A stretch of 64,000 nucleotides of DNA, taken from sequence record OM632671.1. One strand, given 5' to 3'. Positions 1 to 17,016 of the stretch are shown one piece after another (within the stretch, counting starts at the first letter, position 1; every line of letters starts with the position of its first letter). The stretch is from Escherichia phage BEU50. The notes below the pieces were generated by a model that saw only the letters and a list, made by a program, of their open reading frames with translations, was not told where the DNA came from and made no database searches. Both the position numbers and the translations under genes were made by a program.

Positions 1-54
1 CCCTTTTTGCTTTAGATTTTGGATGATAGAATACCTTCATAACGAGGAGACAAC

Positions 55-1875
55 ATGATTAAAAATGAAATTAAGGTATTGTCAGATGTAGAACATATTA
101 AGAAACGTAGTGGTATGTATATTGGTTCTTCTGCTAAAGAAGCACATGAGCGTTTTTTGTTTGGTAAATATCAACAAGTTGAATATGTTCCTGGTCTGGT
201 TAAATTAATCGATGAGATTATTGACAACTCGGTTGATGAAGCTATTCGTACATCATTTAAGTTTGCAAATAAAATTGATGTGCAAATTAAAAATAATCAA
301 GTTTCGGTGGAAGATAACGGACGTGGTATTCCTCAAGGTTTAGTTACCGACCAAACGGGTGAACAAATTCCTGGGCCTGTAGCAGCCTGGACTATTCCAA
401 AGGCTGGTGGTAACTTTGGTGATGACTCTGAACGCAAGACTGGTGGTATGAACGGTGTAGGGAGTAGTTTAACTAATATCTTCTCTACGTTGTTTACAGG
501 CATCACGTCAGATGGCGAAAATGAAATCACTGTTAACTGTTCAAACGGAATGGAAAACAAATCATGGTCTTCTAAGAAATCTAAAGGTAAAGGCACTAAA
601 GTAATCTTCACTCCTGATTTCTCTTCATTTGAAGAGCATAATTTATCTCAAATTTATTTAGATATTACTTTAGACAGACTTCAAACATTGGCAGTCGTTT
701 ATCCTGATATCAAGTTCACATTTAATGGTAAAAAGGTTGATGGTAATTTTAAACGATTTGCTAAACAATTTGGTGAAGATAACATCATTCAAGAAAATGA
801 TAAAGTCTCTATAGCATTCACAACATCACCAGATGGCTTCCGTCATTTAACTTATGTGAATAACATCCATACTAAAAATGGTGGCCATCATGTTGAATGT
901 GTAATGGATGATATCTGTGAACATCTTTTGCCGGGTATTAAAAAGAAATATAAGGGTATTGAAGTCACTAAAGCTCGTGTTAAAGAATGCCTCACAATGT
1001 TGATGTTTATTAGAGACATGAGCAACATGCGTTTTGATTCTCAGACTAAAGAACGTTTAACGTCAACGTATGGTGATATTCGTAATCATATCCAATTAGA
1101 TGCTAAGAAAATTGCTCAGGCACTTCTTAAAAACGAAGCCTTGATTATGCCTATTGTTGAAGCAGCATTAGCTCGTAAATTGGCAGCAGAAAAGGCTGCA
1201 GAAACTAAAGCAGCTAAAAAGGCGACTAAAGCTAAGGTTCATAAGCATATTAAAGCTAACCAATGTGGTAAAGATGCAGATACGACATTGTTTTTAACAG
1301 AAGGTGATTCGGCAATTGGTTATCTCATTGATGTTCGTGACCGTGAACTACACGGCGGATTCCCATTACGTGGTAAGGTGATGAATAGCTGGGGTATGTC
1401 ATATGCTGATATGATGAAGAACAAAGAGCTCTTTGATATCTGTGCTATCACAGGTCTTATTCTTGGTGAAAAGGCAGAGAATACGAACTATCGTAATATT
1501 GCAATTATGACCGATGCCGATCATGACGGTCTTGGAAGTATCTATCCAGCTTTGCTTGCTTTCTTTAGTAATTGGCCTGAATTGTTTGAACAAGGACGTA
1601 TTCGCTTTGTTAAAACGCCTGTAATTATTGCACAAATTGGCAAAACTCAAAAATGGTTTTATACTGTAGCTGAGTATGAAGAAGCTAAAGATACACTGCC
1701 TAAGCATAGTATTCGATACATCAAGGGATTGGGCTCACTTCAGCGAGATGAATATAAAGAAATGATTCAAAACCCTGTGTACGACGTAGTTAAACTTCCT
1801 GAAAATTGGAAAGAACTATTTGAAATGCTCATGGGTAACGACCCTGAACTCCGTAAAGATTGGATGCTAGGATAA
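55..1875 (+). CDS. 39: DNA topoisomerase II large subunit, unsplit 39/60 form
   Basis: 606 aa ORF with RBS GAGGAG; GyrB-like ATPase N-terminus, Toprim motifs EGDSA and DADHDG. Confidence 0.9.
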   Translation: MIKNEIKVLSDVEHIKKRSGMYIGSSAKEAHERFLFGKYQQVEYVPGLVKLIDEIIDNSVDEAIRTSFKFANKIDVQIKNNQVSVEDNGRGIPQGLVTDQTGEQIPGPVAAWTIPKAGGNFGDDSERKTGGMNGVGSSLTNIFSTLFTGITSDGENEITVNCSNGMENKSWSSKKSKGKGTKVIFTPDFSSFEEHNLSQIYLDITLDRLQTLAVVYPDIKFTFNGKKVDGNFKRFAKQFGEDNIIQENDKVSIAFTTSPDGFRHLTYVNNIHTKNGGHHVECVMDDICEHLLPGIKKKYKGIEVTKARVKECLTMLMFIRDMSNMRFDSQTKERLTSTYGDIRNHIQLDAKKIAQALLKNEALIMPIVEAALARKLAAEKAAETKAAKKATKAKVHKHIKANQCGKDADTTLFLTEGDSAIGYLIDVRDRELHGGFPLRGKVMNSWGMSYADMMKNKELFDICAITGLILGEKAENTNYRNIAIMTDADHDGLGSIYPALLAFFSNWPELFEQGRIRFVKTPVIIAQIGKTQKWFYTVAEYEEAKDTLPKHSIRYIKGLGSLQRDEYKEMIQNPVYDVVKLPENWKELFEMLMGNDPELRKDWMLG

Positions 1876-2672
1876 TGAATTATCGTAAAATTTATGATAA
1901 ACTTATCGCTGCGGCTAAAAACCGCAGCATTATTCCTAATTATACTGAGACACATCATATATTGCCAAAATCTATGGGTGGGAGTAATGATAAATCAAAT
2001 CTAGTTAAAATGACCCCTAGAGAGCATTTTATCGCCCATTTATTGCTTTATAAAATTCATAAGAACCGTTCTATGCTTATGGCTATTAGAGCTTTTTACA
2101 TGGGAGCTAGAAATTCTAGAGATTATGATTGGCTTAAACAAGAATTCTCTAAAGAGCACTCTAGATTTATGAAAGAATGGATTGCTAAAAACGGCAACCC
2201 ATTTAAAGGTAAAAAACATACTAAAGCAACAAGAGAATTAATGTCACATATTGCTTCACAACGTATAGGCGAATTAAATCCATTTTATGGTAAAACTCAT
2301 ACGCAAGAAGCAATAGATAAAATAATACAGGCCAACAAGTTATCTTGGGAGAATGGGCGAAAAGCACCTGTAAAAACAAAAGAACACCAGGATAAAATAA
2401 CTAAATCAAGAATGGAAACATTTAAAACAAAAGGATTTAAACCATACACTCCTAGGTCGGAAGAAACTAAAGCTAAGACTAGAGAGTTGTATAAATCTAA
2501 ATATGAAAGAAGGCCTATAAGAATCACAAGTGTAAAAACAGGTGAAACTATTGATTTTAACTATCTTTATGAATTAAGAGAGTATTTAGATATAGGGTCT
2601 TCTAATATATTGAAAGCATTAAATAATCCTAACAGAACCTGCAAAGGTTATAAAATGTGTTGGATGTCCTAA
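1875..2672 (+). CDS. HNH homing endonuclease (I-TevIII/MobA-like)
   Basis: ATG overlaps gene 39 stop (TAATG); N-terminus MNYRKI shared with intron ORF at 28074; HHILPKSMGG HNH motif. Confidence 0.75.
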   Translation: MNYRKIYDKLIAAAKNRSIIPNYTETHHILPKSMGGSNDKSNLVKMTPREHFIAHLLLYKIHKNRSMLMAIRAFYMGARNSRDYDWLKQEFSKEHSRFMKEWIAKNGNPFKGKKHTKATRELMSHIASQRIGELNPFYGKTHTQEAIDKIIQANKLSWENGRKAPVKTKEHQDKITKSRMETFKTKGFKPYTPRSEETKAKTRELYKSKYERRPIRITSVKTGETIDFNYLYELREYLDIGSSNILKALNNPNRTCKGYKMCWMS

Positions 2673-2696
2673 GCTCCTTCGGGAGCTTCATTTTAA
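2672..2696 (+). terminator. rho-independent terminator hairpin AGCTCC-TTCG-GGAGCT plus T-run
   Basis: perfect 6 bp stem, UUCG loop, followed by TCATTTT. Confidence 0.6.
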
Positions 2697-2714
2697 TTTT
2701 AATAAGGCTTAATT

Positions 2715-3815
2715 ATGAAAGTTATGTTTATCCCATCTCGTGCAGTCCCATTTAATCCTGACCGTGTACAAGGTGGTCTTGAAGCGGTTCATTTGAACGT
2801 GTTGAAATATTTAGTTTCTATCGGTGCCGATATTGATTATATCGGCTTTGATAATGACACGTTTGGTGACTGGAAAGTTACACACCATCCTGTTGGTCAT
2901 CTGACTAAATTCAGTCTAGGTATGAGTTATACTATGGCTCGTAAGATTGTTGAACTAGCCGGCATCCATGAATACGATTTTGTTGTTACTATGGAACCGA
3001 CTAAACTAACCGTTCAGGCAATTAAAGACGCAGGTCTCTCTAAAGTTCATAAGAATTTTATGGCAACACCATTTGAACCAGTATCTCGTGGCATTGTTCA
3101 AATTTGGGACCAGACTATTCAAATTCATAAGAATGGCGGTAAGAGTTATGCTCCTACTAAAGCCTTCCGTGAATTTGAACGCAAATATTGTTATATGACT
3201 TCAGGTCTGACTGACAAAATCGATTATGATTATTGGCGAGCAAATCCGTTGTTTGAAGCCGAAGATTATCCGGTTATTTGTTTGACTGAAAAGCCAGAAG
3301 TTCTCCCGGCAACTGATTTGATTATTAGTGCTCAACGTTATGACACTAAGATGCGTCGCACTGATGTTGCTCTTGAAGCAATTAAAGCACTAGGCGAAAA
3401 TGGTGTAGGATACTGTCCTAGTAAATGGGCACCACCAGCTAAATATCCTGTTATTATTGATGCTCCACACAGTGAAATCATGGAACGTCTTAAAACAGCT
3501 AAAGCACTTATTAATACGTGTCCTGACACAGGTACGGTAGAGAATAGTTCTATTGAAGCCATCTCTAAAGGTGTCCCTGTAATCCAGTTAGTTTTTAAGG
3601 ATTATCCTCATGCGACATTTGAATACGACCCAGATACTGTGCGTGTAGAAATTGATTCCTCTACTCCTAAGAAAGAAGTAGTTGCGCTTTACACAAAAGC
3701 TGTATTAGAATTCACTGACACATACGAAGCTCGAGTTAAACGTGCTGAAGCAGTATGGAAGAAGTATAATCGAGATGCAGTTGTTGCGATGTGGGATAAA
3801 ATCTTCACAGCGTAA
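2715..3815 (+). CDS. hypothetical protein, possible GT-B type glycosyltransferase
   Basis: 366 aa ORF; C-terminal E-x7-EA-x3-G-x-PVI pattern (ENSSIEAISKGVPVI); not at a position of any T4 gene I recognise. Confidence 0.5.
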   Translation: MKVMFIPSRAVPFNPDRVQGGLEAVHLNVLKYLVSIGADIDYIGFDNDTFGDWKVTHHPVGHLTKFSLGMSYTMARKIVELAGIHEYDFVVTMEPTKLTVQAIKDAGLSKVHKNFMATPFEPVSRGIVQIWDQTIQIHKNGGKSYAPTKAFREFERKYCYMTSGLTDKIDYDYWRANPLFEAEDYPVICLTEKPEVLPATDLIISAQRYDTKMRRTDVALEAIKALGENGVGYCPSKWAPPAKYPVIIDAPHSEIMERLKTAKALINTCPDTGTVENSSIEAISKGVPVIQLVFKDYPHATFEYDPDTVRVEIDSSTPKKEVVALYTKAVLEFTDTYEARVKRAEAVWKKYNRDAVVAMWDKIFTA

Positions 3816-3831
3816 ATCCTGAATAGCCTGA

Positions 3832-3882
3832 GGCACTATTACACATAAGATGATAGATTATATGGTCTTTAGTAATAGTGCC
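3832..3882 (+). other. long stem-loop (11 bp perfect stem, about 29 nt loop)
   Basis: GGCACTATTAC ... GTAATAGTGCC inverted repeat in the intergenic gap; no T-run. Confidence 0.4.
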
Positions 3883-3907
3883 CTAGGAATCTACTGAAGA
3901 GAATATT

Positions 3908-4108
3908 ATGAGAACATATAACGTGGACTTGGAACTTTTTGATAAAGCAGTGCTCCGGGAATTCCGGCTTATCCAAAGATTTTTTGATATCGAATCAGCA
4001 GAGTCCTTTAAAGAACGCTTTAAAGAAATTCGATATAAAATACAAACCGATACAGCTACTAAAGAAGAACTTCTTGAAGTAGCAGAAATTTTTAAACGTA
4101 ACTTGTGA
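3908..4108 (+). CDS. small hypothetical protein (rIIA.1 position)
   Basis: 66 aa ORF with ATG and upstream purine-rich RBS. Confidence 0.5.
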   Translation: MRTYNVDLELFDKAVLREFRLIQRFFDIESAESFKERFKEIRYKIQTDTATKEELLEVAEIFKRNL

Positions 4109-4120
4109 TGAGAGAAAAAC

Positions 4121-6178
4121 ATGATTATCGAAACGGCTAAAGAAACGATTATTGGTTCTGGTGGTAAGAGCACAGCATTCACTATTCAAGGCAATAGCAA
4201 AGTTTATAAGATTTTGTCTAATGACCTTTATACAAACAAAGAATTGGCTTGTGTACGTGAATTAATCACAAACTGTATCGATGGACAAATTCTTAATGGT
4301 TGCACTGATAAGTTTATTGTTCAGGCTCCAGGTCGTTTAGACCCACGTTTTGTAGTTCGAGACTTTGGTCCTGGTATGAGTGATTTCACCATTCGAGGTA
4401 ATGACGAAGAGCCAGGAATCTATAACTCATATTTTGCTTCAACTAAAACATCGAGTAATGATTTCATTGGTGGATTCGGACTCGGCTCTAAAGCTCCATT
4501 AGCATATACTGATACGTTTAACATTACTTCTTATCATAATGGTGAAGTTCGTGGTTATGTAATTTATCAAGATGACAGTGGTCCACAAATTAAGCCAACC
4601 TTTGTAGATAAGATGGGCCCTGATGACCGTACGGGTGTAGAAGTAGTTGTGCCTGTTAACCCGGAAGATTTTGAAAAGTTCGCATCTGAAATTGCGTATG
4701 TTATGCGTCCTCTCGGCGATATTGCAGAAGTTCGTGGTGTTAAAGATATCAAATACTTCCCGGAATTCGATGATGTTTATTTAGCCAAGGAAGCTCCATG
4801 GGGTGAACGTGGTAATATCATGGCTGTTTATGGTGGTATTGTATATCCAATCGGAAGTGTTATTAAAGAACAAACATGGATGATGACGCGATGCACTACA
4901 GCTTATATCAAATTCCCTATGGGTGAACTAGATGTAGCCCCGTCTCGTGAAGCATTGTCATTTGATAAACGTACAGTAGCAAATATTCATAAACGTGTTG
5001 CAGAAATTGATGCAAAATTATTTGCTGAAGATTCTAAGAAATGGATTGATTGTGAATATCCACGTCATGTATTCCGTGAAATCGATTCTCTTGGTTACTC
5101 TGCTCGTAAATACATGGAAAAAGCCGGTTCTAATATTGAATCACTGAAATATTCTAAAGAACAACTAACTTATTCTGAGTTGTACAAACGTTTTAAAATG
5201 GGACCTGAATGGTGCAACCTTGGCGTTGTATATGATATCGTTTCAGATCCACGACTTCGTCGTATTCGTGAAAGCGGAAGCTCGTCTGCAACTATTTCAA
5301 TTAATAGCCTGCTAGGTATTAGTCGTAAGCATATTGATATTGTTATTGACGATGTGAAAGGCCGCGTACCAATGATGCGTGCTCTGAACGATGCTTTGAC
5401 TTCCACCGATGCATCAACACTCGTTGATAAGGTTCCTTCCGGACGGGGTAGTAGCGTATTATTCATTAACCCGGAAGATGAAGTTGCAATGAAACTTCTG
5501 GAACGATTAAAGGTTATTTTCGCTGGTGATAGCCTTAAATTTTATAAGACCTCTGAAATTCTTGCATTAGTTAAACCATGGATTGAAGTTAAAGAACGTT
5601 CATCGCAGCCTCGTCCTAAATCCCCAAGTGCTCATCGGTTCTTTAAGAATGAAAACGATGTTTGGGTATCAGAAGATCTCTTTATTCCGGCCGGTAAAGC
5701 TGATGAGATTCAAGGTTATGTTGTAATTCGTAATCGTTCTAACGCTGAATGTCTTGACGCAGATAAAGGTTGGTTGAACTATGATTCTAATTTCTTGACT
5801 CGTATTGCTGATTTGTCAGGTATTAAAGAGTTCACTGTAGTCCGTCCACAGATTGCTAAGAAAGTTCGTAAACTTGGTGAAGTAGAATGCTTGTTCGAAA
5901 AATCAATTAATGACTATATTACGCTAATTGATAAAGTGGATTATGATGAGTATGTATCACCAAGTCGTAGAGCACAGCCTTATTTGAATCATATTACTCG
6001 TAACGAAGAGCTTAACTTCCTTAGTAAGTATTTTAGCTCTAAGAACAAAGAAATCAGTAAAGACTTTGCAAAACTCTCAACAGTAAATAATCGCTGGGGA
6101 TGGAATCGATTCGCAGGTGCTGATAACAGAGACCTGAACAGGAAGTTAGAATTGTGCTTAAAGAGGACTCTTTTGTAG
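4121..6178 (+). CDS. rIIA: rIIA membrane-associated protein, 3-prime end ends at a junction
   Basis: 685 aa; GHKL-like boxes ([19 protein letters not shown]); about 40 aa shorter than T4 rIIA as I recall it. Confidence 0.85.
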
Positions 6179-6429
6179 ACCCAGAAATTTTCTACGGTTT
6201 GCGTGCCCGTGAAATTGAAATTGAGCCACAACCTACAGTTAAAATTGAAGGTGGTCAACACCTGAACGTTAACGTTCTGCGTCGTGAAACTCTGGAAGAT
6301 GCAGTTAAGCATCCGGAAAAATATCCGCAATTGACTATCCGTGTATCCGGTTATGCAGTTCGCTTTAACTCTCTGACTCCGGAACAGCAGCGCGACGTTA
6401 TCGCTCGTACCTTTACCGAGAGTTTGTAA
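6154..6429 (+). CDS. GrcA/YfiD-like autonomous glycyl radical cofactor, 5-prime end probably truncated
   Basis: C-terminal RVSGYAVRF glycyl-radical motif, near-identical to E. coli GrcA C-terminal half; only a GTG start available. Confidence 0.75.
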
Positions 6430-6650
6430 TGGCAAAGATAATTATTGAAGGTTCTGAAGATGTGCTAAATGCTTTCGCCGAGTGGTTTAGTAATTCAGGT
6501 GAACAACAATTTAATGAAGCGTGGAATATGGGTGATATTGATGGAATTTATCCTACGACAGAAATTTCTGTTCAGGGATATGGCATTCATGAACCTATTC
6601 GTTTAGTTGAATACGATTTATGTACTGGCGAGGAAGTCAAATATGATTGA
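6429..6650 (+). CDS. hypothetical small protein (vs.5 position)
   Basis: 73 aa ORF, ATG overlaps upstream stop. Confidence 0.5.
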   Translation: MAKIIIEGSEDVLNAFAEWFSNSGEQQFNEAWNMGDIDGIYPTTEISVQGYGIHEPIRLVEYDLCTGEEVKYD

Positions 6651-6909
6651 AGATATTAAGGGTTATAAACCACATACCGACGAAAAAATCGGTAAAGTAA
6701 ATGCTATTAAAGACGCTGAAGTTCGTTTAGGACTTATCTTTGATGCTTTATACGATGAATTTTGGGAAGCATTTGATAGCTGTGAAGATGATGAACTCGC
6801 GAAGAATTACGCCGAAAGCCTCGATCAGTTAACTATTGCTAAAACGAAACTCAAAGAAGCAAGTATGTGGGCTTGCCGTGCTGTGTTCCAACCAGAGGAA
6901 AAATACTAA
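6643..6909 (+). CDS. hypothetical small protein, candidate Vs.4/Acb2-like
   Basis: 88 aa from ATG 6643 with RBS GAGGAAG; assigned by synteny (second ORF before regB) only. Confidence 0.4.
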
Positions 6910-7187
6910 TGGCTCAATTAAGCGCAGGGTTTGGTTATGAGTATTATACTGCCCCTCGTCGTGTATCTGTTGCTCCTAAGAAAATTCAAAGTCTTGATGA
7001 TTTCCAGGAAGTAGTCCGTAACGCTTTCCAGGACTATGCACGCTATCTTAAAGAAGATTCACAGGACTGTCTCGAAGAAGATGAAATTGCTTACTATACG
7101 CAGCGTCTTGAACAGCTCAAAAATCTACATGAGGTTCGTGCCGAAGTTTCAAAGTCTATGAATAAATTGATTAGATTTAAAGAATAA
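6909..7187 (+). CDS. hypothetical small protein (vs.3 position)
   Basis: 92 aa from ATG 6909 with RBS AGAGGAA. Confidence 0.5.
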
Positions 7188-7189
7188 CT

Positions 7190-7219
7190 GTTTACTTTTC
7201 CTCTTGACTGTGGTATAAT
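7190..7219 (+). promoter_or_regulatory. T4-type early promoter
   Basis: GTTTAC, 18 nt spacer, TATAAT; upstream of regB. Confidence 0.65.
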
Positions 7220-7246
7220 TTTTCTATCAGTTAAGAGGAGAATAAC

Positions 7247-7708
7247 ATGACTATCAACACAGAAGTTTTTATCCGTCGAAATAAGCTTCGTCGTCACTTT
7301 GAGTCGGAGTTTCGTCAAATTAACAATGAGATTCGTGAGGCATCAAAAGCAGCAGGGGTCTCATCGTTTCATCTAAAATATTCTCAGCATCTTCTTGATC
7401 GTGCAATTCAACGGGAGATTGATGAGACATATGTTTTTGAATTATTCCACAAAATAAAAGACCATGTTTTAGAAGTTAATGAATTCCTGAGTATGCCTCC
7501 GCGTCCTGACATTGATGAGGATTTTATTGATGGGGTTGAATACCGTCCTGGACGTTTAGAAATCACAGATGGAAATCTTTGGCTTGGATTTACAGTTTGT
7601 AAACCTAATGCGAAGTTCAAAGACCCGTCGCTTCAATGCAGGATGGCAATTATCAATAGTCGTCGTTTACCAGGAAAGGCTTCTAAAGCAGTAATTAAAA
7701 CTCAATGA
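7247..7708 (+). CDS. regB: RegB site-specific endoribonuclease
   Basis: 153 aa, RBS AAGAGGAG; sequence matches RegB as I recall it. Confidence 0.8.
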   Translation: MTINTEVFIRRNKLRRHFESEFRQINNEIREASKAAGVSSFHLKYSQHLLDRAIQREIDETYVFELFHKIKDHVLEVNEFLSMPPRPDIDEDFIDGVEYRPGRLEITDGNLWLGFTVCKPNAKFKDPSLQCRMAIINSRRLPGKASKAVIKTQ

Positions 7709-7715
7709 GGTAAGC

Positions 7716-8261
7716 ATGAGAAAAGCACTACTCGCTGGTCTATTGGCCATTTCAATGATGGCACATAGCTCCGAGCATACTTTCAGTAATGTCCAACTCG
7801 ATAACATGCGTTACGCGTATCAATTCGGGGAACAATTTTCTAAGGATGGAAAATATAAAACACACAAAAACATCCACAAGAGCGGATTGGGTCATATAAT
7901 GGCTGCTATTTTGTGGCAAGAAAGCTCTGCCGGAGTTAATTTAAAATCTAAACCAAAGCATCACGCCTACGGAATGTTCCAAAATTATTTGCCTACTATG
8001 CGAGCGAGAGTTAAGGAACTTGGTTATAATATGACCGATGCTGAAATAAAAAGAATGTTGAATAAACGATCCAATTCAGCTTCCTGGGCGTACATTGAAC
8101 TTTCTTATTGGTTAAATATACATAAGGGCGATATAAGAAAAGCAATATCCTCTTATAATTCGGGATGGAATGTTAAAGCAGGTTCTAAATATGCTTCTGA
8201 AGTCCTAGAAAAGGCTAATTACCTTAAAAATAATAAACTTTTGGAAATAGTAAATGACTAA
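7716..8261 (+). CDS. secreted lytic transglycosylase-like protein (SLT domain)
   Basis: signal peptide; ESSAG, YGMFQ and SYNSGW motifs resembling SLT catalytic motifs. Confidence 0.6.
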   Translation: MRKALLAGLLAISMMAHSSEHTFSNVQLDNMRYAYQFGEQFSKDGKYKTHKNIHKSGLGHIMAAILWQESSAGVNLKSKPKHHAYGMFQNYLPTMRARVKELGYNMTDAEIKRMLNKRSNSASWAYIELSYWLNIHKGDIRKAISSYNSGWNVKAGSKYASEVLEKANYLKNNKLLEIVND

Positions 8262-8595
8262 AATTTTGGTTTTATGTATAGGATTAATTTCATTTTCTGC
8301 GTTAGCAGATACATCATATACTGAAATTAGAGAGTATGTAAACCGTACTGCAGCGGATTATTGCGGGAAAAATAAAGCATGCCAAGCTGAATTTGCGCAG
8401 AAATTAATATATGCATATAAAGACGGAGAAAGAGATAAATCAAGCAGATACAAAAATGATACATTGTTAAAACGATATGCTAAAAAGTGGAATACCTTAG
8501 AATGTTCAGTTGCGGAGGAGAAAGATAAAGCCGCTTGTCATTCAATGGTTGACCGTTTAGTAGATTCTTATAATCGAGGATTGAGTACTAGATGA
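8254..8595 (+). CDS. small secreted protein (vs position)
   Basis: 113 aa with N-terminal signal peptide (…FSALA). Confidence 0.5.
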   Translation: MTKILVLCIGLISFSALADTSYTEIREYVNRTAADYCGKNKACQAEFAQKLIYAYKDGERDKSSRYKNDTLLKRYAKKWNTLECSVAEEKDKAACHSMVDRLVDSYNRGLSTR

Positions 8596-9071
8596 TTGTA
8601 AAATATATCAAGGGCGATATTGTCGCCCTATTTCTTCAAGGTAATATTATTGCGCACGGGTGCAATTGCTTCCACACAATGGGCTCTGGCGTAGCAGGTC
8701 AATTAGCAAGAGCCTATCCCAAAATTTTAGAAATAGATAAAACCACTACCGAGTACGGTTCTCGTGATAAATTAGGCGATATGTCTATTGTTTTTAAACA
8801 TAGTCCTACGGGATTTGGTATATGCTATAACCTGTATACACAATACGAACCGGGTCCTAATCTTGATTATGGTGCTTTAGTAAACTGCATGATAGAATTA
8901 AATCTACAGGCAGAAACCCTTTTGTTTAAACCAGTAATTTACATTCCACGCATAGGTTGCGGTATTGCTGGTGGTGATTGGGATAAGGTTTCTAAATTAA
9001 TCGACATGTTTACTCCTGATATTGATTTAATAGTGGTGGATTATGAAAGTACATTACCCGCATCCGTTTGA
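8592..9071 (+). CDS. macro domain protein (ADP-ribose binding/hydrolase family)
   Basis: 159 aa; IAHGCNCFHTMGSGVAGQ motif typical of macro domains. Confidence 0.7.
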   Translation: MIVKYIKGDIVALFLQGNIIAHGCNCFHTMGSGVAGQLARAYPKILEIDKTTTEYGSRDKLGDMSIVFKHSPTGFGICYNLYTQYEPGPNLDYGALVNCMIELNLQAETLLFKPVIYIPRIGCGIAGGDWDKVSKLIDMFTPDIDLIVVDYESTLPASV

Positions 9072-9255
9072 TCCTAAAAACAAAGTGGAAATTATTCGTC
9101 AATGGGAACGCATTTGCCGTACTAAATGCCCAATTAATAGTCCACATGATGTAGATAAAGACTATATTGGAACATTCGTTGAATATACCTTTATTGATAG
9201 GAAAGGTCGTAAACAACATGTAGAAGAATATTGTTTAAAGGTTACATGGTTATGA
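9043..9255 (+). CDS. hypothetical small protein
   Basis: 70 aa ORF, ATG start, overlaps macro gene end. Confidence 0.35.
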   Translation: MKVHYPHPFDPKNKVEIIRQWERICRTKCPINSPHDVDKDYIGTFVEYTFIDRKGRKQHVEEYCLKVTWL

Positions 9256-9458
9256 GCCAAACTAGTATTCTTAAAAATGCCCATTGTGAAAAGTGTAAGT
9301 GGCCGATTGTTTTTGCTTTATGTAATGATGAAATGGCTTGTGATTTCGATTATTGGTGCTATTGTTCTAATAAAGGATGCATCAATCATAAAGGTGAAGG
9401 ATTTTATTCAGGATTTTATCCTTATCCTGATTTCGTTAAAGAAGGTAAACCGAAATGA
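9246..9458 (+). CDS. hypothetical Cys-rich small protein
   Basis: 70 aa from ATG 9246; CEKC…C…C…C pattern. Confidence 0.4.
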   Translation: MVMSQTSILKNAHCEKCKWPIVFALCNDEMACDFDYWCYCSNKGCINHKGEGFYSGFYPYPDFVKEGKPK

Positions 9459-9628
9459 ATAGTTTTGAGTTACAATATGAAGTGTTACGTGAGCTTGATA
9501 ATTTAATTGAACTCGCTGTCAATAAAGGTTTTGCCATTGGAATCGGTCAAAAAGATACTGGTCATTTAACTATGGAAATATTTAAGCAAAAGCGAATTAT
9601 TTTAAAACTCCTGGAAATTAATATATGA
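9455..9628 (+). CDS. hypothetical small protein
   Basis: 57 aa, ATGA overlap with upstream stop. Confidence 0.3.
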   Translation: MNSFELQYEVLRELDNLIELAVNKGFAIGIGQKDTGHLTMEIFKQKRIILKLLEINI

Positions 9629-9819
9629 GTCTGAGTAAAGAATAAAAAGATAAATTGTTTGAGCTTATCCATGAACTTCTAGATGAGCATGCAGAAGCAA
9701 ACACCTTTTATGATGAATACGGCCCGCTATCTCCCGAACAGCAAGAAGAATTTGCTGATCGGTTTGATAAGAAAGAAAACGAATTAATAGCTTATGTGAA
9801 TATGCTTTAAGAAGGTGAT

Positions 9820-10401
9820 ATGGCGAGTTTAATTTTTACTTACGCAGCAATGAATGCTGGAAAATCTGCTTCTCTTTTGACTGCTGCACATAATTATAAA
9901 GAACGCGGAATGAGTGTATTAGTTCTTAAGCCTGCTATTGATACTCGCGATTCTGTCTGTGAAGTCGTTTCTCGCATTGGAATTAAGCAGGAAGCGAATA
10001 TTATTACAGATGATATGGATATTTTCGAGTTCTATAAATGGGCTGAAGCACAAAAAGATATTCATTGCGTATTTGTAGATGAAGCTCAGTTTTTAAAAAC
10101 TGAACAGGTGCATCAATTAAGTCGAATTGTTGATACATATAATGTTCCTGTTATGGCTTATGGATTAAGGACTGATTTCGCTGGAAAATTGTTTGAAGGT
10201 TCTAAAGAACTTTTAGCGATTGCAGATAAACTTATTGAACTAAAGGCAGTTTGTCATTGCGGCAAAAAAGCGATTATGACAGCTCGATTAATGGAAGATG
10301 GAACACCAGTTAAAGAAGGTAATCAAATCTGTATTGGTGATGAAATTTATGTTTCTTTGTGTAGAAAACATTGGAACGAATTAACTAAAAAGCTCGGTTA
10401 G
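9820..10401 (+). CDS. tk: thymidine kinase
   Basis: 193 aa; P-loop AAMNAGKS; C-terminal Cys cluster. Confidence 0.9.
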   Translation: MASLIFTYAAMNAGKSASLLTAAHNYKERGMSVLVLKPAIDTRDSVCEVVSRIGIKQEANIITDDMDIFEFYKWAEAQKDIHCVFVDEAQFLKTEQVHQLSRIVDTYNVPVMAYGLRTDFAGKLFEGSKELLAIADKLIELKAVCHCGKKAIMTARLMEDGTPVKEGNQICIGDEIYVSLCRKHWNELTKKLG

Positions 10402-10443
10402 TGCAAAAGTTATAAATAGGTTTATCTAACTAAAGGGGTATAT

Positions 10444-10656
10444 ATGCTACAATTAACTGAAAAGCAACTTCGCAATCTTACTGTTCTTCAATTAGATGAA
10501 ATTCGTAGGGAAGTTGGAAATATCATTTCAGCTTTGCGTCGAGAAGTATCACTCAACCAATCTCCGGCAGACTATACTAGATTGCGAAATTTTGAAAAAT
10601 ACCTTGATAAAGTTAAGGCCGTGCATCGGCATAAAGTAAATACAGGACAAAAATGA
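10444..10656 (+). CDS. hypothetical small protein
   Basis: 70 aa ORF in tk-nrdC region. Confidence 0.45.
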
Positions 10657-10668
10657 TAGGAGGCCTTT

Positions 10669-10962
10669 ATGGCCTTAAAAGCAACGGCACTATTTGCCAT
10701 GCTAGGATTAGCGTTTGCTTTATCTCCATCGATTGAAGCGAATGTCGATCCTCATTTTGATAAATTTATGGAATCTGGTATTAGACACGTTTATATGCTT
10801 TTTGAAAATAAAAGCGTAGAATCATCTGAACAGTTCTATAGTTTTATGCGAACGACTTATAAAAATGACCCGTGCTCTTCTGATTTTGAATGTATAGAGC
10901 GAGGCGCGGAGATGGCACAATCATACGCTAGAATTATGAACATTAAATTGGAGACTGAATGA
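10669..10962 (+). CDS. hypothetical secreted small protein
   Basis: 97 aa, RBS AGGAGG, N-terminal signal peptide. Confidence 0.5.
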   Translation: MALKATALFAMLGLAFALSPSIEANVDPHFDKFMESGIRHVYMLFENKSVESSEQFYSFMRTTYKNDPCSSDFECIERGAEMAQSYARIMNIKLETE

Positions 10963-11345
10963 AATTCAGCGACTTTTCACAAAGTGGAAAACCTTCAAAG
11001 GCAGATGAATACTTAGGTTTATTAATGGCTGCACAAGCTTATTTTCATTCTGCGCATTTTGAAACTAAAAGTTATGCTAGACACAAAGCATACGATTTTA
11101 TTTTCTCCGAGTTGCCAGATTTGATTGATAAATTTGGTGAGCAATATTTGGGGTATTCTGGTAGAAAATACACACCTTCAATTCCAGATGCTAGTAAACT
11201 TCCTACCGACACAATTAAAATGATTGATCGCATACTAGACCAATCTAACAGCATTTATAAAGAAATGCCTCCAGCCATTCAAAGCACGATAGATGATATC
11301 ACTGGGATGTTTTATCAGAGTAAATATCTTCTTTCCCTCGAATAA
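10959..11345 (+). CDS. hypothetical protein
   Basis: 128 aa ORF, overlapping start with upstream stop. Confidence 0.5.
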
Positions 11346-11350
11346 CGTTA

Positions 11351-11372
11351 GTCTCCTTCGGGAGACTTTTTT
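11351..11372 (+). terminator. rho-independent terminator GTCTCC-TTCG-GGAGAC plus T6
   Basis: perfect hairpin followed by TTTTTT. Confidence 0.7.
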
Positions 11373-11382
11373 CATTTTACCG

Positions 11383-11412
11383 GTTTACTTTCCATTTGAG
11401 CTGTGATACTAT
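11383..11412 (+). promoter_or_regulatory. T4-type early promoter
   Basis: GTTTAC, about 18 nt, TACTAT. Confidence 0.55.
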
Positions 11413-11440
11413 ACAACCATCGGATAAAGAGGAGAACATC

Positions 11441-11629
11441 ATGAAAATTGAAGCACTTAATCAAGAAGGAAATATCTACGTCATCATTAATGGTGATTTT
11501 TTCGTCGACATGGATGAAGTTACCAGTGAAGAACTTGTAGAACTTCTTAAGAAACGTTATAATATGTGTGATGAAGTTGCAACTCACATGGCGTGTGCAA
11601 TATTCTCTCTTTCATATGTGGTGGAATAA
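11441..11629 (+). CDS. hypothetical small protein
   Basis: 62 aa from ATG 11441 with RBS AAGAGGAG. Confidence 0.45.
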
Positions 11630-11645
11630 TGAAAACTGAAAAGCA
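11620..11645 (+). repeat. 26 nt direct repeat copy 1 (GGTGGAATAATGAAAACTGAAAAGCA)
   Basis: identical 26-mer spanning stop/RBS/start; second copy at 12010. Confidence 0.8.
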
Positions 11646-11832
11646 AGCGGATAAAATTAAGGAATTAGTGGCTTCAATTCGTAAAGCAGATGAAGAGCTG
11701 ATTGACTTTGCTTGGTATTCATCGGGTATTTCGAATAAAGGCATTAAAGACTTTGAAACTAAAGTTGATAATGCTTTAGAAGCGTTAGATATGTTTCTTG
11801 ATGAAATTATCGATCATAATACGAGAGTTTAA
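11629..11832 (+). CDS. hypothetical small protein (MKTEKQ start)
   Basis: 67 aa from ATG inside the 26 nt repeat. Confidence 0.45.
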   Translation: MKTEKQADKIKELVASIRKADEELIDFAWYSSGISNKGIKDFETKVDNALEALDMFLDEIIDHNTRV

Positions 11833-11834
11833 GT

Positions 11835-12029
11835 ATGCTAACACGTGAACAGTTTGAAAAAATCATTAAATTAGCACGTGATGTTGAAATAGATTCATAT
11901 CAATTAGCAGTTGAGCATTGTGAAGGATATTCATACGATGGTATAGAATCAGCTAAAAGGGATTTGGATAAATCTAAAGCTAAGTTAGTCCAATATCTTG
12001 AAATGATTAGGTGGAATAATGAAAACTGA
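11835..12029 (+). CDS. hypothetical small protein
   Basis: 64 aa ORF. Confidence 0.45.
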   Translation: MLTREQFEKIIKLARDVEIDSYQLAVEHCEGYSYDGIESAKRDLDKSKAKLVQYLEMIRWNNEN

Positions 12030-12035
12030 AAAGCA
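12010..12035 (+). repeat. 26 nt direct repeat copy 2
   Basis: identical to 11620-11645. Confidence 0.8.
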
Positions 12036-12192
12036 GATGTTTTTAATGAAACTAATTGAAGAATATGCTAATGCAGTTTCTGACTATGAGCGTTCTTCTC
12101 GGGAAAGAGGTACAGCTTTCGCCAAAGAAGAAATGAAAATCATGGTTGATGCTCACACAAAGCTTCAGAATTTTATTGAAAACAACATTTAA
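12019..12192 (+). CDS. hypothetical small protein (MKTEKQ start)
   Basis: 57 aa from ATG inside repeat copy 2. Confidence 0.35.
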   Translation: MKTEKQMFLMKLIEEYANAVSDYERSSRERGTAFAKEEMKIMVDAHTKLQNFIENNI

Positions 12193-12194
12193 CG

Positions 12195-12224
12195 GTTTAC
12201 AAGTTGGCAAGGTTATGGTATAGT
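12195..12224 (+). promoter_or_regulatory. T4-type early promoter
   Basis: GTTTAC, 18 nt, TATAGT. Confidence 0.55.
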
Positions 12225-12359
12225 AATCTTGTCAACTGTCAAGGAGAAGAGAATGAAAGTTTTGTTTGTTGTGTATGTAATGATTCAATATAATTACCCA
12301 ATGTTTACTTATAATCTGGTGAACAACATTATTGATATTATTCAAAGGAGTATGTAATT

Positions 12360-12590
12360 GTGAGTGAGTCGAAGAGAATCAATATGAAACGATTAGTATT
12401 AGAAGTTAGTCCGCTTTTTGGTGAATTGGCTATAGAAAAAGTAAATAACATGTATCGTTTGACGCAAGAAGACGATATGCTATATTTTACGCCTAGTGAA
12501 ATCATTCATTTAACCCAAATTGAATATCCTTATACTGATAAAATAGTAAGTATCAATGATGAGCACAAAATTCATTGCTCGTTTGATTGA
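12360..12590 (+). CDS. hypothetical small protein
   Basis: 76 aa; GTG start 8 nt after AAGGAG (alternative ATG at 12384). Confidence 0.4.
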   Translation: MSESKRINMKRLVLEVSPLFGELAIEKVNNMYRLTQEDDMLYFTPSEIIHLTQIEYPYTDKIVSINDEHKIHCSFD

Positions 12591-12680
12591 AGTTGAAGCC
12601 CAAATTGCAGAACACACCAAATTGTTAAAAGCTCTTAATGCAAAAGCAAATGGTTTACGTAATGCTATTGAGGTATTGAA

Positions 12681-12995
12681 ATGAAAAAGCGTCTATTAGA
12701 AGACATTGCAGCTTCAAGTAATTCCAGTTTAATTAAAATTATTATGGCCGGTGAAGAAGACGATCTGGAAATGCGTGGAAAGATTTATGGTTGTGATGAT
12801 TATAGCAGCCCTATTAATTGGGATTCTGTAATGGTCATGGTTGAACGTCGCGAAAGGGCTTCTAAAAACGTTCCTAATTGCCCTGAATGTGGAACTGAAC
12901 AGGTGCAATTAGTCCATTGGCAGACTAATAATCTTCGTTATAAATGTCGCCATTGTAAACACCGATTTGACCGAGAAGAAAATGACAAAGCGTAA
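12681..12995 (+). CDS. hypothetical zinc-ribbon protein
   Basis: 104 aa; CPECG…CRHCKH. Confidence 0.5.
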
Positions 12996-13224
12996 AGAAT
13001 ATATGGAGACCGCCGAAAAGGCAGTCCGTGAATTAGCAATAGCTTATTATAATGAACACGGTAAATTTCCTGATAGATACAGCGTGCTTAAATCTGCTTT
13101 AACTCGTTCATATAAAAATATGCTATCAGAAGTAAGTGATATTATATACAAACATAAAGAACAAACGGGCCAAAGTCTTGATTACGACGAGACTTTTAAA
13201 CAAGTACTAGGAATTAAGGAATAA
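12982..13224 (+). CDS. hypothetical small protein
   Basis: 80 aa from ATG 12982. Confidence 0.45.
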
Positions 13225-13225
13225 T

Positions 13226-13489
13226 ATGTTTAAAGTATATGGTTATGATAGCAACATCCATAAATGTGTGTATTGCGATAATGCAAAACGTCTTTTGACC
13301 GTGAAGAAACAGCCGTTTGAATTTATCAACATTATGCCGGAAAAAGGTGTTTTTGATGATGAGAAAATCGCTGAGCTTCTGACTAAACTAGGTCGTGATA
13401 CTCAAATCGGCTTAACAATGCCTCAGGTATTTGCTCCTGATGGAAGTCATATTGGTGGATTTGACCAATTGCGGGAATACTTTAAATGA
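13226..13489 (+). CDS. nrdC: glutaredoxin/thioredoxin NrdC
   Basis: 87 aa; CVYC active site. Confidence 0.85.
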   Translation: MFKVYGYDSNIHKCVYCDNAKRLLTVKKQPFEFINIMPEKGVFDDEKIAELLTKLGRDTQIGLTMPQVFAPDGSHIGGFDQLREYFK

Positions 13490-13701: not shown

Positions 13702-13703
13702 AT

Positions 13704-13874
13704 ATGATTTACGATATTAGTGCAGCAAGAGCTCCATCAATGGTTGCTATTCCAGCTGAAGAATTAGATCGTCTTCATAAAATTGAAGAACTTCTGTGGG
13801 AAATTGAATCTGATTTGCCATCAGGATTAGAATCCTGGATTGATTATGAAGAACTTAATAAGCTTCGGGGTTAA
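13704..13874 (+). CDS. hypothetical small protein
   Basis: 56 aa from first ATG of the 13665 ORF. Confidence 0.3.
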   Translation: MIYDISAARAPSMVAIPAEELDRLHKIEELLWEIESDLPSGLESWIDYEELNKLRG

Positions 13875-15209: not shown

Positions 15210-16027
15210 ATGTAGTATATAAACTATCATTTATTAATAGAATTAATGCTAAAACCCCACCATATTATTACATTGGAAGTAAAACCAATTGCACTTTTGA
15301 TGGAACGAATATTATTGATAAAAATGGTAAATTTTATTATTCGTCTTCGTCATCTTCTGAATTTCAAAAAGCCTTATTGAAAGAAACGCCGAAAGTTGAA
15401 ATATTATATTTTCAATTAGTCGGAGATGAACAAATAACTAGCATTGAAGCTGAATTTCAAAAGAATATAGAAAAAGATGTATGGAATAAAGAGTATTTTA
15501 ATTTAGCATATGCTGATGGCAAATTTACGACATATGGTATTTCTCCTTCTAAAGAAACTAGAGAAAAGCAATCAATAACCATGATTAAAAGAAATCGTAA
15601 TAAAGGCAAAAATCATGGATTTTATGGAAAGCATCATACTAATTTAGCTAGAAAGAAAATATCAGAAGCTTCTAAAAAATACTGGAAAGAAAATCCACAT
15701 CGTGGATTTTCGCATACAAAGGAAGCTAAAATTAAAATTGGAATTTCATCTTCTATCAGGCATAAAGGAAGTGGAAATCCGATGTATGGTGTAAAACCTT
15801 GGAAAACTCCGAGCGCAATTAAATCTGGTACTTGTATATTATGGTTAAAATACGCAGAAATTTTATATGATTATTTAAGTCCAGATTTTAAAAGTAAATC
15901 ATCTATTTTTGCGGATTTAAACTTACCGAAATTTAGAATTGATAATTTCATCAAAAGGTTTAAAATGGGTTGGAACCCATATTTAGACGAAGAATTTCAA
16001 AAGGATAAATTAGAATTATGTCTTTAG
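15206..16027 (+). CDS. GIY-YIG/NUMOD-type homing endonuclease-like protein (seg-like)
   Basis: 273 aa; VVYKLS…YYYIGSK and repeated GxxHT/NPMYG NUMOD-like motifs; inserted between 49 and nrdD. Confidence 0.6.
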   Translation: MNVVYKLSFINRINAKTPPYYYIGSKTNCTFDGTNIIDKNGKFYYSSSSSSEFQKALLKETPKVEILYFQLVGDEQITSIEAEFQKNIEKDVWNKEYFNLAYADGKFTTYGISPSKETREKQSITMIKRNRNKGKNHGFYGKHHTNLARKKISEASKKYWKENPHRGFSHTKEAKIKIGISSSIRHKGSGNPMYGVKPWKTPSAIKSGTCILWLKYAEILYDYLSPDFKSKSSIFADLNLPKFRIDNFIKRFKMGWNPYLDEEFQKDKLELCL

Positions 16028-17016
16028 AAAAAGATGTTTTAAATTTTATTTCAAATAAAGATAAAGAATTAAATACAGAAAACGCCAACAAAGATTCTCG
16101 CGTCTTTCCAACAAAAAGAGATTTAATGGCCGGTATTGTTTCTAAACATATCGCTTGTCGTATTCTTCCAAGTCATATTGTAAATGCCCATAATGTTGGA
16201 TTAATTCATTTTCATGATTTAGATTACAGTATATCATTGCCTTTTACTAATTGCTGTTTAGTAGATTTAAAAGGAATGCTTGAGAACGGGTTTAAGCTCG
16301 GTAATGCACAGATTGAAACTCCTAAATCAATCGGTGTTGCTACTGCAATTATGGCACAAATTACTGCACAGGTTGCTTCTCACCAATATGGCGGAACTAC
16401 ATTTGCTAATGTCGATAAAGTACTTTCTCCTTATGTTAAACGCACCTATGCAAAACATATCGAAGACGCAGAAAAATGGCAAATCGCCGATGCGTTAAAT
16501 TATGCTCAATCTAAAACAGAAAAAGACGTATACGATGCATTCCAAGCTTATGAATATGAAGTAAATACTCTCTTTAGTTCAAACGGACAGACTCCTTTTG
16601 TAACAATTACATTTGGTACAGGAACTGACTGGACTGAACGAATGATTCAGAAAGCAATTCTGAAAAATCGTATTAAAGGTCTTGGTCGTGATGGGATAAC
16701 TCCTATTTTCCCTAAGCTTGTTATGTTTGTTGAAGAAGGTGTTAATCTTTATAAAGACGATCCGAACTATGATATTAAGCAGCTTGCTCTAGAGTGTGCA
16801 AGCAAAAGAATGTATCCTGATATTATTTCAGCTAAGAACAATAAAGCTATCACTGGTTCATCTGTTCCTGTTTCTCCAATGGGTTGCCGTAGTTTCTTGG
16901 GCGTATGGAAAGATTCGACTGGTAATGAAATTCTTGATGGACGTAATAATCTTGGCGTTGTAACACTGAATCTTCCTCGCATCGCGTTAGATTCTTATAT
17001 TGGAACACAGTTCAAT
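16018..17016 (+). pseudogene. nrdD: anaerobic ribonucleotide reductase NrdD, 3-prime truncated (N-terminal ~333 codons only)
   Basis: NrdD-like sequence to …[17 protein letters not shown]; remainder of the ORF to 17103 is reverse complement of gene 37 start; no glycyl-radical C-terminus. Confidence 0.8.

Follow-up and report, generated by a model that had tools for sequence, protein, structure and literature searches.

The stretch of DNA analysed here (64,000 nucleotides of the Escherichia phage BEU50 record OM632671.1, hereafter the window) carries on its plus strand an open reading frame (ORF) of 91 codons at positions 6154..6429, which starts with the GTG at 6154 and whose stop codon ends at 6429. 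On its 5' side lies rIIA' (4121..6178, plus strand), a Mosigvirus gene of the RB69 type (98% identity to RB69) without its last 178 nt, and on its 3' side lie, also on the plus strand and in the T4 order, vs.5 (6429..6650), vs.4 (6643..6909, of the Acb2/Tad1 family according to its Pfam match), vs.3 (6909..7187) and regB (7247..7708). The two sides meet at 6157..6158 in a blunt, non-homologous junction (J1), which joins the interior of the Mosigvirus rIIA to nucleotide 92 of the Tequatrovirus gene vs.6. In particular, window positions 3800-6156 correspond to RB69 positions 2535 down to 179 (at 98% identity, the match ending at 6156), the phage matches on the vs.6 side begin at 6158, and a three-way alignment revealed no sequence common to both parents at the join. 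The rIIA' frame continues for 21 nt past J1 into vs.6, out of frame, giving a foreign tail of seven residues and a product of 685 aa (737 aa in RB69).

The first two codons of the ORF (GTG CTT) lie across this junction and codons 3-91 correspond to Vs.6 residues 32-120, the odd length and start of the ORF being a consequence of the chimeric join. A Shine-Dalgarno-like hexamer (AGGAAG, 6140..6145, plus strand) is found 8 nt 5' of the GTG, within the rIIA coding sequence and, by alignment, at the same place in the RB69 rIIA; both the hexamer and the GTG are chance features of the rIIA coding sequence. A promoter and terminator scan of positions 5600-7300 gave counts no higher than those of shuffled sequences, with nothing informative at J1. 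The first-pass annotation had taken the 91-aa ORF for a gene adjoining a junction. The junction does exist, but it cuts inside vs.6, and what was read as a gene is actually a 5'-truncated fragment that takes its start codon from rIIA across the blunt join.

Relation of the ORF to the T-even gene vs.6

From 6158 onward the window shows 98% nucleotide identity to Tequatrovirus genomes, where the match is annotated as "autonomous glycyl radical cofactor", the name that RefSeq gives to vs.6. In T4 this gene occupies 63557..63919 (363 nt, 120 aa, NP_049730.1), and only two His to Arg differences separate ORF residues 3-91 from T4 residues 32-120. The synteny is kept on the 3' side (vs.5-vs.4-vs.3-regB-vs.1-vs-tk.4-tk), with a flank that is colinear with T4 63828 to 60712 at 91% and with UFV09 at 98%, and is broken on the 5' side (vs.7, vs.8 and denV) at 6157/6158. 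The window copy hence shares with T4 Vs.6 the neighbours vs.5, vs.4, vs.3 and regB, the radical motif and an E. coli-like 3' tract, in which it has three additional synonymous changes (CAA TTG ACT). It differs from T4 Vs.6 in having lost the first 30 codons plus one nucleotide (and so residues 1-31), the ribosome-binding site, the upstream vs.7/vs.8 and its own start (the native ATG lies 91 nt 5' of where the vs.6 sequence of the window begins), and in being joined to the rIIA of another genus. About 1,590 phage records have a homologue, among them the T4 sequence X04567 from the 1980s, and the homologues are full length (about 120 aa) in 1,538 of 1,588; a gene of the same type is also present in T5-like phages. 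We consider it highly probable that the ORF represents a T-even vs.6 gene (T4 Y06I, 120 aa) of which the 3' three-quarters remain, cut by a join that is most likely non-biological.

The glycyl-radical, GrcA-like character that was first ascribed to the ORF is borne out by its domain matches, since it matches the Pfam Gly_radical family (PF01228) with E=1.5e-18 and 67.7 bits (cut-off 22.2), the solved GrcA structure (6OWR) with E=5.9e-40 and PflB residues 698-759 with E=2e-26. The putative radical-bearing glycine lies in an RVSGYAV motif and is encoded by the GGT at 6349..6351 (plus strand); alignment to 6OWR and PflB equates ORF G66 with Vs.6 G95, GrcA G102 and PflB G734, the site assignment following PMC8683613. 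With the TIGR04365 profile (spare_glycyl), the ORF scores 146.8 bits (E=3.6e-43) over profile positions 46-126 of 126. This is below the curated equivalog cut-off of 170 bits, but the validated T4 Y06I (151.1 bits) also falls short of it, so that the cut-off reflects bacterial GrcA and does not decide membership for phage proteins. As a member of the autonomous glycyl radical cofactor class (GrcA/YfiD/Y06I), the ORF has the PFL-type radical domain with its RVSGYAV loop; the class would lead one to expect about 120-127 aa with an N-terminal half, and 91 aa are present here.

Compared with E. coli GrcA (YfiD, P68066; structure 6OWR), the last 60 residues of the ORF (EGGQH...TESL) are 100% identical to GrcA 68-127, and the PFL-type fold, the activase and the target are presumably common to both. 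The earlier statement that the last 65 residues are nearly identical holds as well, with 62 of 65 identical in a hand count on the translations. However, GrcA has 127 aa, its N-terminal half being a disordered stretch of 60 residues which assists in binding and activation (PMC8683613), and it resides in the context ung-grcA-eamB, whereas the context of the ORF is phage; the corresponding half of the phage protein is only about 35% identical to that of GrcA, and about half of it is missing in the window. The difference reported for the N-terminal part is therefore real, although this N-terminus is not a natural one, its residues 1-2 being made by the junction and residues 3-91 being those of Vs.6 32-120. 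As for PflB, the match to its C-terminal domain (about 693-759) takes in the loop with Gly734, for which the spare part substitutes, although in PflB the radical domain is embedded in an enzyme of 759 aa and here it forms a small stand-alone protein.

Nature of the junction

J1 and three further joins of the same blunt kind fall inside genes in the 6-25 kb part of the window (6157/6158, about 12576, 17016/17017 (J2) and 24536/24537 (J3)), all with 0-2 nt of common sequence at the join. The window mixes two phage genera, with all five pieces in one orientation; the last switch is a homologous one that falls in the region of the nrdB intron (27.9-29.0 kb), and 28-64 kb is a colinear Mosigvirus backbone. 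Skipped from their usual places are rIIB, 52, motA, asiA, t, 38, most of 37, 32, frd and td, and several of these genes are essential in T4. A De Bruijn-type misassembly through a common repeat was rejected for J1, the join near 12576, J2 and J3, given their 0-2 nt of shared sequence, and such a repeat-mediated event is plausible only for the nrdB switch. The single orientation and the homologous nrdB switch are, in part at least, what one would expect of a genuine recombinant between Mosigvirus and Tequatrovirus.

None of the 50,697 phage records searched spans J1 (743 matching records cover one side only), a 24-mer across the join is absent from IMG/VR and from the JGI metagenome contigs, and neither the exact 685-aa rIIA' nor the exact 91-aa ORF was found in an index of 153 billion genes. 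Based on this absence, and because three more blunt mid-gene junctions are present, two genera are mixed and essential genes have been left out, J1 most likely goes back to assembly, to concatenation or to some other non-biological joining.

The best surviving alternative is that J1 arose by illegitimate recombination in a Mosigvirus/Tequatrovirus co-infection, yielding a genome, or else a defective member of the population, where the fragment follows the truncated rIIA and is translated from the GTG at 6154 as a shortened, partly active spare part. A close reference for such a product is truncYfiD (residues 61-127; Andorfer et al. 2021), which is likewise shortened at the N-terminus with its structured domain whole; the window fragment differs in keeping 29 more native residues, which are phage-derived and result from a junction and not from design. 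With truncYfiD, catalysis is kept and near normal once bound, but binding is weaker (too weak to measure) and activation is about four-fold lower (PMC8683613). The Vs.6 fragment would be expected to behave in the same way, with weaker binding and activation and with catalysis retained, and, because YfiD without residues 1-60 still supports catalysis (PMC8683613), such a fragment, if present in a phage, would not necessarily be inactive. The 8-nt spacing between AGGAAG and the GTG could permit translation, the fragment retains the whole structured radical domain plus 29 residues of the N-terminal region, and the common orientation of the pieces and the homologous nrdB switch are as in real T-even hybrids. 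Nevertheless, four blunt mid-gene joins within 19 kb, the long list of skipped genes, the impaired binding and activation of truncYfiD and the restriction of the join to this one record (among phage genomes, IMG/VR and JGI metagenomes) make the combination of a recombinational origin with translation of the fragment, in our view, unlikely. With a non-biological join as the preferred reading, the 6-25 kb region of the window should be treated as non-colinear, findings of adjacency within it (GrcA with rIIA, or near nrdD) are unsafe, and there is no ground for presenting the ORF as a novel or uncommon form of GrcA.

Function of intact Vs.6

The biology of vs.6 is already known, as the first-pass annotation had supposed: according to the account in PMC8683613 of Wagner et al. 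2001 (pmid 11444864), YfiD and T4 Y06I are both activated by PFL-AE and restore oxygen-cleaved PFL, and YfiD residues 61-127 adopt the fold of PFL 693-759 (PMC8683613). Intact Vs.6 acts as an autonomous glycyl-radical cofactor, whose C-terminal 60 residues copy the radical domain of the host GrcA/PflB. The host activase PflA installs the radical on the glycine of the RVSGYAV motif, and the radical-bearing Vs.6 then docks on oxygen-cleaved pyruvate formate-lyase, restoring the production of acetyl-CoA and formate when oxygen reaches the infected cell; the demonstration was made in vitro with T4 Y06I. Formate being the reductant of the phage NrdD, its supply may also be kept up by Vs.6. In this sense vs.6 is a textbook case of a phage-carried repair part for a host enzyme, which keeps anaerobic energy metabolism running in an oxygen-exposed host and, by inference, would provide formate for the phage NrdD too.

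A more direct relation to nrdD was also considered, in which the vs.6 product would be a spare part for the NrdD of the phage and not for the host PFL. The co-occurrence with nrdD was pointed out in the first-pass annotation, vs.6 is conserved in T4-like genomes which also carry nrdD/nrdG, and a role in nucleotide metabolism was suggested for it by Nolan et al. 2006 (PMC1524935). However, nrdD does not lie alongside the ORF, as had been stated: what the window has of nrdD is limited to a fragment 9.6 kb downstream that lacks its 3' end (nrdD', 16018..17016, plus strand); it covers the N-terminal 333 codons or so of an anaerobic ribonucleotide reductase gene without an intron and breaks off at J2 (17016/17017). 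Its extent was defined with NCBIfam profiles, blastn against T4 and the junction alignment; it lacks its own glycyl-radical C-terminus, the NCBIfam NrdD profiles being matched only to positions 308 of 581 and 421 of 712, and in T4 vs.6 and nrdD are 17 kb apart. Further against an NrdD target, the C-terminal domain is identical to that of GrcA and matches PflB 698-759 as described above, no ribonucleotide reductase chain occurs among the 33 PDB matches at E<=1e-3, the top NCBIfam matches are GrcA, GrcA2/3 and PFL and not NrdD, PFL is reconstituted by Y06I in the account given in PMC8683613, and T5-like phages carry the gene too. We regard this reading as very unlikely.

Natural short GrcA variants of about 78-80 aa do exist (NCBIfam models GrcA2 and GrcA3, NF008341 and NF038360; 78-80 positions), and the ORF resembles them in its comparable length and its radical-domain match (E=4e-27 to 4e-31). 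That it is such a variant, with its own start and without any truncation, is nevertheless extremely improbable: the scores are under both curated cut-offs (107 against 158 and 94 against 145), the DNA is that of a cut vs.6, colinear at 98% with the full-length gene from exactly nucleotide 92 and preceded by rIIA coding sequence, and nearly all the phage homologues are full length, as counted above. The preferred identity, a fragment of vs.6, is retained in what follows.

Origin of the E. coli-like 3' tract

Within the ORF, a host-derived tract of 172 nt (6245..6416, plus strand) is 98.3% identical to E. coli grcA, with three mismatches. In the relatives UFV09, L094, L095 and L099 the tract matches E. 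coli grcA perfectly (100%), and in T4 it has one mismatch (the nucleotide identity is, for comparison, 81% for Salmonella and 89% for Citrobacter). At 47%, its GC content exceeds that of the window (37%). When window positions 1-25000 were compared by megablast with 5,426 E. coli genomes, no other stretch was similar to any of them; the similarity is limited to 6245-6433 (95.8%), ending at the stop and collapsing 5' of 6245. In the alignment with E. coli grcA and the T4 homologue, which had been proposed as a check, the last 183 coding nucleotides are 95.6% identical to grcA here and 97.8% in T4. The last 61 codons differ from grcA by 8 nt in 8 codons (seven synonymous changes and one Ile/Val), with a dS of 0.17, which disagrees with the earlier claim that many synonymous codons differ.

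The two halves of the gene have different histories. The 3' half has 96-98% nucleotide identity to Escherichia grcA (dS 0.05-0.17), the dS to E. coli being 0.39 for Citrobacter, 0.98 for Salmonella and 1.65 for Klebsiella phage PKO111. When T4 is compared with Mosigvirus, the 3' half gives a dS of 0.12 and the 5' half next to it one of 0.45. The 5' half of the ORF is homologous to phage vs.6 and has no DNA-level homology to E. coli, although at the protein level homology between Vs.6 and GrcA can still be recognised in their N-terminal halves (35% identity over 40 aa, E=5e-6). The proposal of an acquired, long-resident phage gene consequently stands for the 5' half only, the Escherichia-like 3' half pointing to a recent host origin.

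Host DNA contamination, or an E. coli fragment mis-joined in the phage assembly, might be suggested by the fact that every one of the 5,426 complete E. coli genomes has a grcA matching at 96% nucleotide identity and by the host-like GC content, but it was rejected as having a negligible probability, given that the identity is confined to about 185 nt with phage flanks on both sides, that the upstream half is phage vs.6 and not E. coli DNA, and that the hybrid gene is universal in T-even phages (about 1,590 independent records, including the 1980s T4). The first-pass annotation, for which near-100% identity including the flanks would have indicated contamination, was right in calling this a phage gene, the similarity to E. 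coli stopping at 6245 and 6433.

These observations suggest that vs.6 is an old, full-length grcA homologue, of which the 3' 175 nt or so would have been recently overwritten, in T-even phages that infect E. coli, by Escherichia chromosomal grcA sequence, with host-to-phage gene conversion (marker rescue from host DNA) as the likely route. Both the direction and the mechanism are judged likely from the composition and the phylogenetic distances. A search of the open literature, which did not reach the older T4 papers, found no mention of such a conversion, and one on phage grcA as an auxiliary gene or on its horizontal transfer found nothing relevant.

More tentatively, and with somewhat less than even confidence, the sequences raise the possibility that in Tequatrovirus and Mosigvirus this conversion is recurrent and keeps the radical half of vs.6 nucleotide-identical to the grcA of the current host. 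If so, the spare part would always fit the PflB and PflA of the host, and vs.6 would show, in a clean natural case, how a lytic phage can refresh one of its auxiliary genes with sequence from the host that it currently infects. One A/G polymorphism of E. coli is shared with a phage allele. Host tracking at the nucleotide level found no support in Klebsiella, Enterobacter, Aeromonas and T5-like phages, for which the best identities to the sampled host genomes were 74-86%. Klebsiella phages carry residues of the Klebsiella/Enterobacter type (LLDAVEH), and on the Klebsiella side the agreement with the host consists of this amino-acid signature only.

A glycyl-radical ORF cut from gene vs.6

The reported ORF, which runs on the plus strand from a GTG at 6154 to a stop codon ending at 6429 (91 codons), unmistakably encodes a glycyl-radical domain protein. 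It matches the Pfam Gly_radical family (E=1.5e-18), the structure 6OWR of GrcA (also called YfiD, the E. coli spare part for oxygen-cleaved pyruvate formate-lyase, PFL; E=5.9e-40) and residues 698-759 of PFL itself (PflB; E=2e-26). Additionally, its final 60 residues are 100% identical to residues 68-127 of E. coli GrcA, and the radical glycine, in the motif RVSGYAV, is residue 66 (codon 6349-6351). These matches bear out the core of the first-pass annotation, a glycyl-radical ORF with a GrcA-like C-terminus; as a whole, its observation is partly confirmed and its interpretation partly supported.

Megablast comparison with 50,697 phage records identifies the gene as T-even vs.6: Tequatrovirus genomes are 98% identical to the vs.6 side of the window, and the annotation beneath the match reads "autonomous glycyl radical cofactor" (with the gene name vs.6 in one record). 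In T4, vs.6 (63557..63919) encodes a 120-aa product, named GrcA in RefSeq and known as Y06I in biochemical papers. The T4 gene order is kept 3' of the ORF at 91-96% identity (vs.5, vs.4, vs.3, regB, vs.1, vs, tk.4 ... tk ... nrdC ... 49, nrdD). T4 Vs.6 is matched in 1,588 phage records (tblastn), 1,538 of which hold a match over at least 80% of the query, taken as a full-length homologue (about 120 aa); carriers include T4-like phages of Escherichia, Klebsiella, Enterobacter, Cronobacter and Aeromonas, as well as T5-like phages and one jumbo Yersinia phage. Nolan et al. 2006 (PMC1524935) had found vs.6 with a Gly_radical domain in 6/6 T4-like genomes. Two genes 3' of vs.6, the vs.4 homologue (6643-6909) matches Pfam Acb2_Tad1_hairpin (E=9e-20), a family of anti-CBASS/Thoeris nucleotide sponges.

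The join at 6157/6158 and the mosaic layout

The window copy of vs.6 is without its 5' end: the ribosome-binding site, the native start codon (ATG) and codons 1-30 are all absent. On the vs.6 side, window 6158 is the first position of every phage match, and the vs.6 gene of UFV09 (the closest relative) begins 91 nt before the position aligned with it; on the other side, window 3800-6156 is 98% identical to RB69-type (Mosigvirus) rIIA, in a match that ends at RB69 coordinate 179, 178 nt short of the end of rIIA. In a three-way alignment the switch is abrupt, without sequence common to both sides. Codons 1-2 of the ORF (GTG CTT) straddle the join, residues 3-91 correspond to Vs.6 residues 32-120, and rIIA coding sequence supplies both the GTG start and, 8 nt upstream, the AGGAAG. 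The rIIA frame continues 21 nt into vs.6, out of frame, to a stop at 6178. None of the 50,697 phage records spans both sides (megablast), a 24-mer across the join is absent from IMG/VR and JGI metagenome contigs, and neither the chimeric protein of the 3'-truncated rIIA (rIIA') nor the 91-aa ORF protein is on record in an exact-protein look-up of a 153-billion-gene index. The unusual length, the GTG start and the rIIA neighbour of this vs.6 copy are products of a blunt chimeric join, which is probably artefactual.

Several public phage records also start or end within vs.6 (MN508617.1, 12-194; PP531540.1, 166399-166605; KM389388.1, 2-70), so arbitrary contig or record ends can fall in this gene.

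According to blastn maps on T4 and on the Mosigvirus WFK, a Mosigvirus segment (1-6157, 60+39 to rIIA') is followed by T4-like segments at 6158-12576 (T4 63828 to 57624), 12577-17016 (T4 49045 to 44354, ending inside nrdD), 17017-24536 (T4 156676 to 149138; genes 37', 36, 35 and 34 on the other strand, then rnh to 59') and 24537 to about 27.9 kb (T4 143081 to about 139000; nrdA, nrdB), and then by a colinear Mosigvirus segment (98% identity) at about 28-64 kb. The joins at 6157/8, about 12576/7, 17016/7 and 24536/7 lie mid-gene on both sides, with possible microhomology of 0-2 nt. The second (12572-12577) connects T4-equivalent 57624 (inside mobD.1) to 49045 (inside nrdC.3), leaves out about 8.6 kb and is spanned by 0/608 matching phage records, in which its two sides match as separate places. 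The third (17016-17017) leads from nrdD to the reverse strand of the gene 37/36 region (T4 44354 / 156676; 1 nt of possible overlap), and the fourth (24536-24537) from a cut gene 59 to nrdA.2 (T4 149138 / 143081) without microhomology, skipping segG, 32, frd.1-3, frd and td. Only the switch back to Mosigvirus at 27.9-29.0 kb is homologous: it falls in the nrdB/intron region, and the window there is about 99% identical to both parents. It may be either a crossover between homologous sequences or a change of assembly path. Missing from their usual places are rIIB, 52, motA, asiA, t, 38, most of 37, 32, frd and td, several of which are essential in T4.

Given these mid-gene joins with at most 0-2 nt of possible microhomology, the first two of them spanned by no phage record, and the genes missing from their usual places, the 6157/6158 join most likely has no biological origin; contigs from two mixed T-even phages may, for example, have been concatenated or wrongly joined, or the join may be artificial in another way. 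The same orientation of all pieces and the homologous switch in nrdB would fit a real recombinant phage, an origin that we consider quite improbable for this join.

The first Mosigvirus segment also contains a 270-aa HNH + NUMOD3 homing-endonuclease ORF (1860-2672), flanked by the fused 60+39 topoisomerase gene on one side and the ORF003c homologue on the other, where RB69 has no gene.

A host-like tract in the radical-domain half

Over the last 183 coding nt, identity to E. coli grcA is 95.6% for the window, 97.8% for T4, 97.3% for UFV09 and 96.7% for a Mosigvirus, and the many synonymous codon differences from the host gene described at first pass were not borne out. Within a 172-nt tract (6245-6416), the mismatches to E. 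coli grcA number 3 in this window, 1 in T4 and 0 in UFV09 and three IMG/VR contigs (L094, L095, L099). Directly upstream, identity collapses (14/25 positions differ), and alignment finds no similarity to the E. coli grcA locus 3' of the stop codon. The window tract is 89%, 84% and 81% identical to grcA of Citrobacter, Klebsiella and Salmonella, respectively. The dS of the phage tract to E. coli is 0.05-0.17, against 0.39 for E. coli vs Citrobacter and 0.98 for E. coli vs Salmonella; for T4 vs Mosigvirus, dS rises from 0.12 in the tract to 0.45 in the 5' half next to it. The tract has 47% GC (window, 37%). A megablast comparison of window 1-25000 with 5,426 E. coli genomes gave matches to this tract and nowhere else. 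Together, these data indicate that vs.6 is an old grcA homologue of full length, in which Escherichia grcA has recently overwritten the radical-domain half; the host genes show ordinary vertical divergence, which argues for a host-to-phage direction.

There are hints, not proof, of more than one such exchange. Vs.6 of the Klebsiella phages PKO111 and Matisse (151-513 in both L087 and L088) carries LLDAVEH, as in Klebsiella/Enterobacter GrcA, and LEDAVKH is common to E. coli phages and E. coli GrcA. At the nucleotide level, Klebsiella-phage vs.6 reaches only 81-86% identity with any of the sampled hosts, so any exchange there would be older, or its donor outside these hosts. Additionally, a CAA/CAG (Gln) A/G polymorphism that separates two E. 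coli grcA alleles (L174, L175) is also present in a phage vs.6 allele (L096, IMG/VR UViG_2974787500), and could reflect independent conversion events or a coincident transition. The remaining interest lies in this host-identical tract, as possible evidence of recurrent host-to-phage gene conversion.

Function of the intact protein and relation to nrdD

The spare-part biology of vs.6/GrcA is already known (Wagner 2001; RefSeq name). As Wagner et al. 2001 is reported in PMC8683613, both YfiD/GrcA and T4 Y06I take up the glycyl radical from PFL activase and reactivate oxygen-cleaved PFL. The fold of YfiD residues 61-127 is that of PFL 693-759; tight binding and full activation require the disordered residues 1-60, whereas catalysis does not (PMC8683613). 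The N-terminal region of full-length Vs.6 is homologous to that of GrcA (35% over 40 aa, E=5e-6). The window fragment derives from a GrcA/Y06I member and would work in the same way; unlike those proteins, it has neither a start of its own nor a complete N-terminal half. The structured domain is retained in full, without difference from GrcA, together with 29 residues of the region N-terminal to it; if expressed, the fragment would act as a milder version of truncYfiD, the laboratory truncation of YfiD (residues 61-127). In the TIGR04365 model it scores 146.8 bits, below the 170-bit cut-off, as does the validated T4 Y06I (151.1 bits). A short cofactor of the GrcA2/GrcA3 type was rejected, with scores below the cut-offs of those families and DNA that is a cut vs.6.

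The first-pass annotation had set the ORF alongside nrdD, a placement that does not hold: the sole nrdD sequence of the window (16018..17016) is 9.6 kb away, and in T4 vs.6 and nrdD are 17 kb apart. Formate is the reductant of class III ribonucleotide reductase; a phage Vs.6 that keeps PFL active could thus also protect the formate supply for the phage's own NrdD. The link between vs.6 and nrdD would then be functional, not positional. Repair of NrdD itself by Vs.6 is unlikely, since the domain is of the PFL/GrcA type and no ribonucleotide reductase chain is among the PDB matches. The window nrdD is cut after about 333 codons, without its own glycyl-radical C-terminus, and is intron-less (no I-TevII intron). 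Between gene 49 and nrdD, which abut in T4, a 273-aa ORF with NUMOD3 (15206-16027), likely a homing endonuclease, is inserted.
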